Shown here piece after piece: positions 36,322-37,292 of a stretch of 38,859 nucleotides of DNA; position 1 is the first letter of the stretch, and every line of letters begins with the position of its first letter. The position numbers were made by a program, and so were the translations under genes. Source of the DNA: a virus (lineage: Duplodnaviria > Heunggongvirae > Uroviricota > Caudoviricetes); the IMG/VR virus record IMGVR_UViG_2711768001_000013. The stretch is one strand, 5' to 3'. The notes beneath the pieces are model-generated. The model did not search any database. It had not been told where the DNA came from and saw only the letters and a program-made list of their open reading frames with translations.

Positions 36322-36497
36322 TTTCATTACTGCAAATGCCCCTGCGGGGGCATTTACGGAAGCGATAATTTTAACTATTGCCGCCCCTATAAAGAACCAT
36401 TAAACAATAACGTGACGTAGCTATTGATAGTAAATGAAGCACTTGCAAAATAATTGCATTGCGTATATATACACACATGTGTTGTATTACAGCGATA

Positions 36498-37292
36498 ATG
36501 GTAAAGCAAATGATTAACTCTGAAGCAATTGAGCAACTAATGTGGCTATGGTCCTTATTTGACATTAAATTCTTATCTATTCTTGCCGCTGCCTTCACTA
36601 TATATTTTGGCGTGCAAAAAATATCAAAAAAGGTGACAGTGTCGTATTCAGCAAATGCAAGTAGAATATATGACATGCATATATCAACCATAATCCTGAA
36701 TAATAAAAGAGATAATGCAATTGCTATATCTTCAATCAATATGGAGGTTGAAGGTAAAGGGATACTACAAGTTATTAAATTTGACTCCCCTCTTCTTTTA
36801 AAGAACTATGATTCTTTAAAAGTTGAACCACCAAAATTTAGCAGCCTTTACAATAATGATGGCGTAGTTAAGTTAGATATTTCTGATAAGTTTCATTTTT
36901 ATATAATCACGACATCTGGAGATGAAATTAAATGTATTTCTGAAAATAAATATGTAGCACCAAACATGGAAAACAAAATAGCTACAGACATAAGAAAATT
37001 TAATGGCATTGTCTTAACAAACAGAATGTCTTATATTTTTTTCTATGCAAATGACAACGGAGAGAAATACTGCATAATAGATGTTTCATTGTTCATAAAT
37101 GGTGACAACCCATTTCATTTTAATTTTTTAAAAGAAGATGAATTAAGAGATTTTTCTAGCATCCTTATTAGTTACGGATATCACCAACAGTTTAAAAGTT
37201 ATGCATTGTTTAAAATAGACAACCATCTTGCTCCTTCTTTGGTTTTAAATAAATCAATGATAGAAAATAATATTATTGAAATGAATAAGTAA
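36498..37292 (+). CDS. AT-rich membrane-anchored protein of unknown function
   Basis: ORF with one predicted N-terminal TM segment (LMWLWSLFDIKFLSILAAAFTIYFGV) and an Asn/Ile/Lys-rich soluble part; strikingly AT-rich. Start uncertain (36459/36498/36510). Confidence 0.55.
   Translation: MVKQMINSEAIEQLMWLWSLFDIKFLSILAAAFTIYFGVQKISKKVTVSYSANASRIYDMHISTIILNNKRDNAIAISSINMEVEGKGILQVIKFDSPLLLKNYDSLKVEPPKFSSLYNNDGVVKLDISDKFHFYIITTSGDEIKCISENKYVAPNMENKIATDIRKFNGIVLTNRMSYIFFYANDNGEKYCIIDVSLFINGDNPFHFNFLKEDELRDFSSILISYGYHQQFKSYALFKIDNHLAPSLVLNKSMIENNIIEMNK

Follow-up and report, generated by a model that had tools for sequence, protein, structure and literature searches.

Superinfection exclusion (Sie) proteins of the Sie2009 (Tuc2009) type are lactococcal prophage products with a hydrophobic N-terminus that associate with the membrane and block DNA injection by heterologous phages, and their genes lie in the lysogeny module between the repressor and the integrase (PMC7693887). 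SieA of P22 and gp15 of HK97 are prophage inner-membrane proteins that block DNA entry without enzymatic activity; P22 SieA has 162-164 aa, three predicted transmembrane (TM) segments and little soluble mass (PMC10883804). SNIPE (PD-lambda-1), a nuclease bound to the membrane, cuts phage DNA during injection, and its orientation with the N-terminus outside and the C-terminus inside the cytoplasm (N-out/C-in) was shown experimentally (PMC13190303). Here we describe an AT-rich gene in the IMG/VR virus record IMGVR_UViG_2711768001_000013 (Caudoviricetes), a stretch of 38,859 nucleotides that is referred to below, at its full length, as the window. The gene is carried by a foreign, self-contained, horizontally acquired cassette that forms cargo of a lambdoid prophage, and it encodes a predicted single-helix membrane protein that is a candidate for an anti-phage role. 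The cassette and its parts are as follows.

36372-37297, + strand: AT-rich cargo cassette, ~0.93 kb, 29.9% G+C, consisting of ~140 nt of upstream DNA, one coding sequence (CDS) and 5 nt.
36510-37292, + strand: CDS of 260 aa; RefSeq WP_047654657.1 "hypothetical protein"; phrog_14996.
36537-36614, + strand: N-terminal hydrophobic (predicted membrane-anchor) helix, residues ~10-35, with an acidic N-tail and the basic C-flank QKISKK.
36633-36932, + strand: immunoglobulin (Ig)-like beta-sandwich domain, residues 42-141, containing the conserved turn NK[RK]D[NK].
36975-37286, + strand: C-terminal alpha/beta domain, residues 156-259, with no similar solved structure.

A reading made from the letters of the window (the sequence-only reading) had placed a membrane-anchored gene at 36459-37292. 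These are the limits of the maximal open reading frame (ORF), which runs for 277 codons from a TTG, but the start is better placed at ATG 36510. RefSeq calls the 260-aa CDS from this ATG on 100%-identical DNA, the profile phrog_14996 (PHROGs, function unassigned) aligns from its residue onwards with E = 2.4e-178 and 591.9 bits (query residues 5-264 of 264 against profile positions 1-260 of 260), and orthologues start with MINxK at the position of the ATG. Because these three agree, ATG 36510 is preferred over TTG 36459 as the likely start codon. A 122-aa antisense ORF (36371-36739, - strand) that is without RefSeq annotation overlaps the 5' part of the gene.

The base composition sets the gene strongly apart from its flanks, as the sequence-only reading had claimed. 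The CDS has 29.0% G+C, with 26% at third codon positions (29.3% for the maximal ORF), against 45.5% for yfdQ, 41.1% for xis and 51.5% for the window with N excluded. Windows of 783 bp that are clear of the cassette have a mean of 52.3% G+C, with a standard deviation of 4.8 and a minimum of 36.5%, which gives the gene a z of -4.8. Its codon usage is the most deviant among the 20 window ORFs compared: ATA encodes 45% of Ile, AGR 100% of Arg and TTA 41% of Leu.

The window represents a lambdoid prophage, and among its genes are those for Lom, a tail-tip protein, a tape measure, terminase, lysozyme, antiterminator Q, a CII-like protein, a cro/YdaS-like protein and a LexA-family cI. The + strand order is cI (33708-34382), a yfdP-like ORF, yfdQ/DUF2303 (35497-36321), the AT-rich gene and the PrtN-family excisionase gene xis (37329-37610), so that the AT-rich gene occupies the early-left (cI-to-xis) block of an E. 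coli lambdoid prophage, just 5' of xis. The prophage is integrated in the dusA/zur region. To define the cassette, megablast was run against 5,426 complete E. coli genomes, and alignments with ETEC6334, O157:H7 and phage SfV bore out its junctions. Homology to ~2,700 E. coli genomes ends at query position 871/872 (window ~36370) and picks up again at 1798 (window 37297/8); the left junction is imprecise, at 36366-36372. The gene is present in 99 of the 5,426 genomes and the yfdQ flank in 2,707. Carriers are animal and human isolates of many lineages, and the E. coli copies are always in the yfdQ-xis slot. Natural lysogens whose DNA is 100% identical include strain A14 and O25b:H4. At least one natural allele is broken: in E. 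coli E89 (NZ_CP121157.1, L045 953-1650) an IS1X2 sits in the 5' part and a 183-aa remnant ORF is left.

At this chromosomal site (dusA fragment, zur, yjbJ, dinF), sibling prophages have the same xis and downstream genes and lack the AT-rich gene. Between yfdQ and xis they carry a 3.4-kb block with the yfdR 5'-deoxynucleotidase gene, small ORFs, an Ea22-like gene, DUF551 genes and a 3'-5' exonuclease gene, and phage SfV has yfdR, orf29 and orf28 at the same interval. Since the siblings hold a 3.4-kb block in the same place, the event was block replacement rather than simple insertion. The claim that the gene was inserted between yfdQ and xis is therefore borne out in its sharp junctions and foreign DNA, and needs correction in that the cassette takes the place of other genes. 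No transposon-like or att-like direct or inverted repeats were found around the cassette, and no non-coding RNA in the region scored above the Rfam gathering scores. The reading of the gene as accessory cargo is upheld by the sharp junctions, the absence from same-site siblings, the presence in 99 of 5,426 E. coli genomes and the occurrence of relatives in unrelated mobile elements, which are described below.

The AT-rich ORF is a real gene under purifying selection. In E. coli, Citrobacter and Klebsiella, close homologues fall into 11 clusters with 40-100% identity, orthologues lying at 40-92%. When 1.84 billion representatives were searched exhaustively with a profile, the search returned 221 proteins at E <= 1e-3, 141 of them at <= 1e-10 (~220 family clusters, counted at 50% identity). 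Nearly all of the 221 are ~240-270 aa long and match end to end with the same layout, at identities down to 25%; they come from Enterobacterales, Pseudomonas, Acinetobacter and environmental metagenomes. The ratio of nonsynonymous to synonymous substitution rates (dN/dS) amounts to 0.36 for the 93% allele and to 0.14-0.35 in the comparisons that allowed an estimate of dS, and the nonsynonymous proportion (pN) is far below the synonymous proportion (pS) in every comparison. The orthologues all have 30-35% G+C amid flanks of 44-54% G+C, so AT-richness is a lasting trait of the family. A profile scan of the genome contigs with a close alignment found one locus only. The gene is not encoded in any of 50,697 deposited phage genomes (tblastn, E <= 1e-3), no mention of WP_047654657.1 was found in the papers searched, and it is not in the DefensePredictor supplements. 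The family is moderately large and has no prior characterisation.

An alternative would be a spurious ORF, a chance open frame in an AT-rich spacer, and the few G+C-rich codons, the weak Shine-Dalgarno sequence and the overlapping 122-aa antisense ORF fit such an origin. AT-rich DNA is rich in stop codons, however, so that an open frame of 277 codons is improbable by chance, and full-length orthologues down to 25% identity, the low pN, confident structure models and membership of a PHROG family effectively refute this explanation, to which we give next to no credence.

Nearly every context examined for the relatives was a mobile element or lay beside integrase or phage genes; the exceptions were two short metagenome contigs (L048, L050) that lack diagnostic neighbours. 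The Citrobacter orthologues lie directly 5' of a small xis-like ORF and an integrase gene in at least three different islands, among them a P4-like satellite that has a D5/primase gene and CP4-like islands that carry CbtA/CbeA and anti-restriction genes. A conserved 477-aa protein without a Pfam or PADLOC match is encoded ~550 nt 5' of the orthologue on three Citrobacter island backbones (L007-L010, 4015-5448), and the two genes may be parts of a larger cargo block that travels together. In Klebsiella and Raoultella the gene is found in early or nin-like regions of lambdoid prophages, with similar placements in IMG/VR contigs, and in another prophage (L031) it is directly 5' of a lambda-type integrase gene. 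An environmental genome has it in a minimal integrase islet adjoining ffh. Acinetobacter and Vibrio carry it on small plasmids, beside MazEF, an HNH protein or recombinases. Across these contexts the neighbours that resemble toxin-antitoxin or defence genes include RnlAB, CbtA/CbeA and, in the window itself, a pair with a Panacea-domain protein.

Two Pseudomonas P2-like prophages (L012, L013) encode a distant family member directly beside the portal gene. In P2-like phages the main hotspot for defence genes is the GpA-GpQ interval (PMC13586616), and the Pseudomonas portal-side slot corresponds to it. The occurrence of one cargo gene at int/xis slots, at the P2 portal-side hotspot, in a P4-like satellite and on small plasmids points to shuttling between the hotspots of unrelated elements.

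Immediately 5' of the Pseudomonas family member, with a gap of ~45 nt, both P2-like prophages encode a 455-aa ATPase (L012 6589-7959 and L013 6584-7951) that matches AAA_16, NB-ARC and nSTAND models and, weakly, the PADLOC candidate PDC-S59 (E = 1.5e-7). This pair may be an undescribed two-gene system, and it raises the possibility that the family consists of membrane effectors or adaptors that require a partner, in which case the solitary E. coli copy would be an orphan with little or no activity. The recurrence of the ATPase-first pair in both prophages and the IS1-disrupted allele in one E. coli strain are in keeping with such a dependence. We nevertheless regard it as improbable, as the upstream neighbours elsewhere are mutually unrelated (an HNH_5 protein in Acinetobacter, the 477-aa protein in Citrobacter, or none), most contexts are solitary, and purifying selection acts on solitary orthologues too. 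We rejected an obligatory two-gene system on the same comparison of upstream neighbours, the Pseudomonas AAA_16 ATPase included, and the lack of relationship between lineages indicates that the gene is a stand-alone module.

The protein was expected to have one N-terminal TM helix and an unrecognisable soluble domain, and both expectations agree with the results. There is a single hydrophobic segment, with a Kyte-Doolittle (KD) 19-mer maximum of 1.68 (residues ~13-35) and no later segment above 0.95, and 40 of 70 diverse relatives reach KD >= 1.6. AlphaFold2 (AF2) models from 11 sequences, with a mean predicted local distance difference test score (pLDDT) of 80.4, have a helix at residues 4-39, the beta-sandwich at 42-141, a poorly predicted linker at 145-151 and the alpha/beta domain at 156-259. 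The C-terminal domain modelled alone from 19 sequences reached a pLDDT of 89.2 and a predicted template modelling score of 0.79. The soluble part found nothing in Pfam, NCBIfam or PADLOC, and no match to a phage structural or recombination protein was obtained in the database searches. An Ig_TMEM131L_3 match was weak (E = 0.011, below cut-off) and echoes the Ig-like fold only. In PADLOC-DB v2 the protein had no match at E <= 1, and its 70 relatives gave two isolated marginal matches.

The charges on either side of the helix are unequal throughout the family. In the 70 members the N-flank has on average 0.57 K+R and 1.51 D+E and the C-flank 2.43 K+R and 0.41 D+E, the C-flank being the more basic side in 60 of them. 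The positive-inside rule is the established basis for reading membrane orientation, and with it the charge bias predicts an N-out/C-in bitopic inner-membrane protein, with a short acidic N-tail in the periplasm and both globular domains in the cytoplasm. The columns that are at least 90% conserved in the 70 members are limited to K37, N65, P94, S111, Y179, G194 and N205. No D, E, H or C column is conserved across these members, which would favour a binding protein over an enzyme.

The DNA around the CDS bears on how the gene might be expressed, and has these features.

36334-36355, + strand: hairpin 3' of yfdQ (stems 36334-36342 and 36347-36355), with a 9-bp G+C-rich stem, a 4-nt loop and no T-tract.
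36424-36499, + strand: candidate promoter region; a scan gave TTGATA-16-CAAAAT (36424-36451) and TACACA-18-GATAAT (36470-36499), with 9/12 matches.
37329-37610, + strand: xis, PrtN-family excisionase gene (PF11112, E = 3.1e-23; phrog_1300 "excisionase"), in the same direction as the AT-rich gene after a gap of 36 nt.
37614-37639, no strand assigned: first strong terminator-like hairpin 3' of the cassette, after xis, found by the terminator scan, with an 11-bp stem, -16.2 kcal/mol, z = -5.0 and A/T runs on both sides.

According to the sequence-only reading the gene is bracketed by a hairpin at ~36333-36355 and by promoter-like AT-rich DNA. The hairpin is real (RNA fold of -19.4 kcal/mol, z = -3.8), but it is part of the conserved yfdQ flank and lies outside the inserted DNA: it is identical in ETEC6334 and SfV, which both have other cargo, and ~2,700 E. 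coli genomes have it in the yfdQ 3' flank. It was not among the intrinsic terminators called by the terminator scan. Promoter-like hexamers do exist upstream of the gene, including a further pair seen by eye, TTGCAA-17-TATATA (36443-36471), but they are not enriched, with seven seen against 10.2 +/- 3.2 in shuffles. An upstream block, TTG[CT]AAAA.AAT..CATT..GTATA, is conserved 5' of a 64%-identical Citrobacter orthologue in a different element, which lends some support to autonomous signals of a putative regulatory function. No terminator was found in the interval from the stop codon (37292) to the start of xis (37329), where a 5-bp hairpin (37296-37311, z = -0.96) is no better than chance.

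As there is no terminator before xis and the two genes have the same orientation with a 36-nt gap, it is equally conceivable that the gene is expressed only upon induction, together with the early-left operon. It might then serve the phage's own lytic or induction programme, as a membrane-targeted host-takeover or Kil-like factor or as an inhibitor of a competing element, transcribed with yfdP, yfdQ and xis after derepression. The gene shares its direction with cI, yfdP and yfdQ as well as xis, it replaces delayed-early non-essential genes of sibling prophages (yfdR, Ea22-like, DUF551, exonuclease), and some orthologues lie within early or nin-like regions. Set against this, the gene takes its ~140-nt upstream region along, part of which is conserved in a Citrobacter island that is unrelated, and orthologues occur in elements that have no lytic programme, namely integrase islets, a CP4-like island and small plasmids. 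The extreme and lasting AT-richness and the patchy distribution also suit exchangeable cargo better than a phage core function. We consider a role in the lytic programme unlikely, though it is the foremost of the alternatives to an anti-phage role.

An anti-phage role of this membrane-anchored cargo protein is our leading candidate, which we hold with slightly less than even confidence; a superinfection-exclusion or abortive-infection (Abi) function is plausible from the predicted architecture and the location. The protein, which we infer to be expressed in the lysogen, would guard its host at the inner membrane against other phages, as their genomes enter or just afterwards, and would act by binding and not by catalysis. 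By one route it would keep the genome from entering where the injection site faces the cytoplasm, as in superinfection exclusion; by another it would sense a phage component and perturb the membrane through its anchor, as in abortive infection. The outlying composition and codon usage, the mosaic junctions with alternative cargo, the patchy distribution and the purifying selection all fit this picture of an acquired accessory cassette with a candidate anti-phage gene, as do the breadth of the family, its accessory slots in mobile elements, the toxin-antitoxin or defence-like neighbours, the N-out/C-in charge bias and the lack of catalytic-type residues. More tentatively, the family as a whole may be an unrecognised one of stand-alone, non-enzymatic, N-out/C-in inner-membrane anti-phage proteins (~220 clusters at 50% identity, in Enterobacterales, Pseudomonas, Acinetobacter and environmental bacteria) that would combine an Ig-like domain with a C-terminal domain unmatched in the PDB, intercept phages at the cytoplasmic genome-entry site, and be coupled to a STAND-like ATPase in Pseudomonas P2-like prophages.

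Several observations weigh against an anti-phage role. The profile searches of Pfam, NCBIfam, PADLOC and PDB sequences, made with the protein and 70 diverse relatives, were empty and thus gave no homology to a known Sie, Abi or defence protein, and matches at the level of fold are confined to generic Ig-like ones. A conserved D-I-K lies within the hydrophobic helix, whose score is only moderate (KD 1.68). Expression in the prophage state is presumed, the evidence for a promoter being weak and xis following with no terminator in between, and at 29% G+C the gene is likely to be an H-NS target and may be silent. The evidence from location is suggestive and not specific, as the same slots hold non-defence cargo too.

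One such kind of cargo would be a lysogenic-conversion factor unrelated to phages, a membrane protein that alters the physiology of the host, such as its tolerance of envelope stress, its colonisation, or its resistance to colicins, serum or antimicrobials. Prophage cargo close to int and xis often consists of such factors, and Lom/Ail is encoded in the same prophage; an Ig-like sandwich is a generic interaction module, and isolates that carry the gene come from animals and humans and belong to many lineages. The predicted topology, with both globular domains in the cytoplasm, is ill-suited to surface contacts, and the family recurs at the P2-like portal-side defence hotspot and beside toxin-antitoxin and nuclease genes. 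It is also spread over Enterobacterales, Pseudomonas, Acinetobacter and environmental metagenomes and is not confined to one niche. A conversion factor therefore seems to us somewhat less probable still than a role in the lytic programme. With an anti-phage role as the leading candidate, this is for now a cargo gene for a "hypothetical protein" of ordinary appearance, to which a good hypothesis for experiments is attached, and its kind, a prophage accessory membrane protein, is not surprising.

The rest of the window has further features, two of them at the prophage end close to the gene.

37871-38290, - strand, and 38287-38859, - strand: pair of a Panacea/SocA-like domain protein (PF13274, E = 1.8e-18) and a 139-aa ORF (phrog_19071), with a 4-nt overlap.

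In the window (37329-38859) and in L001 and L039, xis is followed by a convergent ORF of 57 aa, then by the Panacea pair and finally by host DNA (dusA fragment or zur), with no integrase gene directly after xis. The left end of the window likewise shows no integrase gene, so int is outside the window or has been lost. The Panacea pair lies 0.6 kb from the AT-rich gene on the opposite strand, between xis and the prophage end. The 139-aa ORF is the downstream partner of the Panacea-domain protein, and the pair looks like a PanTA-type toxin-antitoxin. Other strains (L040, L046) have different Panacea pairs or another ORF at this position, which is a second variable cargo slot. A Panacea-type pair beside the gene and variant pairs in other strains make this end of the prophage a cargo-rich zone.

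A run of 332 N at 23694-24025 falls within a holin-like ORF of the lysis cassette, between the lysozyme gene (23023-23556, - strand) and a DNA methylase gene (24165-25217, - strand), and positions 6169 and 6447 are single N. The 332-N run produces an apparent second AT-rich island at 23.2-24.4 kb, which was discounted as artefactual, since N enters the denominator of the composition profile.

Morons, a Hendrix/Juhala concept for lambdoid phages, are one of the categories closest to the gene. The gene resembles one as an extra gene that is absent in close relatives, has a distinct composition and shows a mosaic junction (breaks at ~36370 and 37297). It differs in that its own terminator is missing, the promoter hexamers are at shuffle level, and a block was replaced rather than "more DNA" added between adjacent genes. 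With the hairpin belonging to yfdQ, promoter hits at chance and no terminator of its own, the classical moron signature that the sequence-only reading saw here is only partly present: the foreign composition and the junctions stand, and the bracketing signals are incomplete. A type IV pilin-like protein was also considered. Such proteins have a basic leader, a cleavable class III signal and a globular domain outside the cell. The candidate was rejected, as the protein has an acidic N-tail and no basic leader or prepilin-peptidase-type motif; its basic flank follows the helix, which predicts the opposite orientation, and the resemblance, at 8-17% identity, is one of generic fold only.

Membership in the Sie2009, SieA or SNIPE families is not supported. 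In position and architecture the Sie2009 type offers the nearest analogy, in that a single small gene for a protein with one N-terminal hydrophobic helix lies between cI and xis. Sie2009 comes from a Gram-positive host and is smaller, whereas the E. coli protein has two globular domains that are predicted to be cytoplasmic. The tblastn search of the 50,697 phage genomes, lactococcal phages included, gave no match at E <= 1e-3, which argues against detectable homology to Sie2009, although the Sie2009 sequence was not directly compared. With SieA and HK97 gp15 the protein shares prophage encoding and a location in the inner membrane, which is predicted for the E. coli protein. It differs from SieA in having 260 aa, one helix (later KD maximum 0.95) and ~220 aa of globular sequence, and no homology between the two was found.

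The SNIPE domains are absent from the protein and its 70 relatives in Pfam and PADLOC searches, the PADLOC library covering PD-lambda systems, and no catalytic residues are conserved. The likeness to SNIPE is one of layout: an N-terminus that is short and periplasmic, a single TM helix, and domains in the cytoplasm, an arrangement that is experimental for SNIPE and predicted from charge bias for this family. By analogy, SNIPE (PMC13190303) illustrates how a membrane anchor that faces the cytoplasm can be of use for defence where phage DNA is injected. Should the anti-phage role prove true, the gene would be a compact single-gene system dissimilar to catalogued defence proteins and, after SNIPE, a second and non-nuclease example of immunity at the cytoplasmic face of phage DNA entry, and it would give a handle on how siphovirus and podovirus genomes cross the inner membrane.

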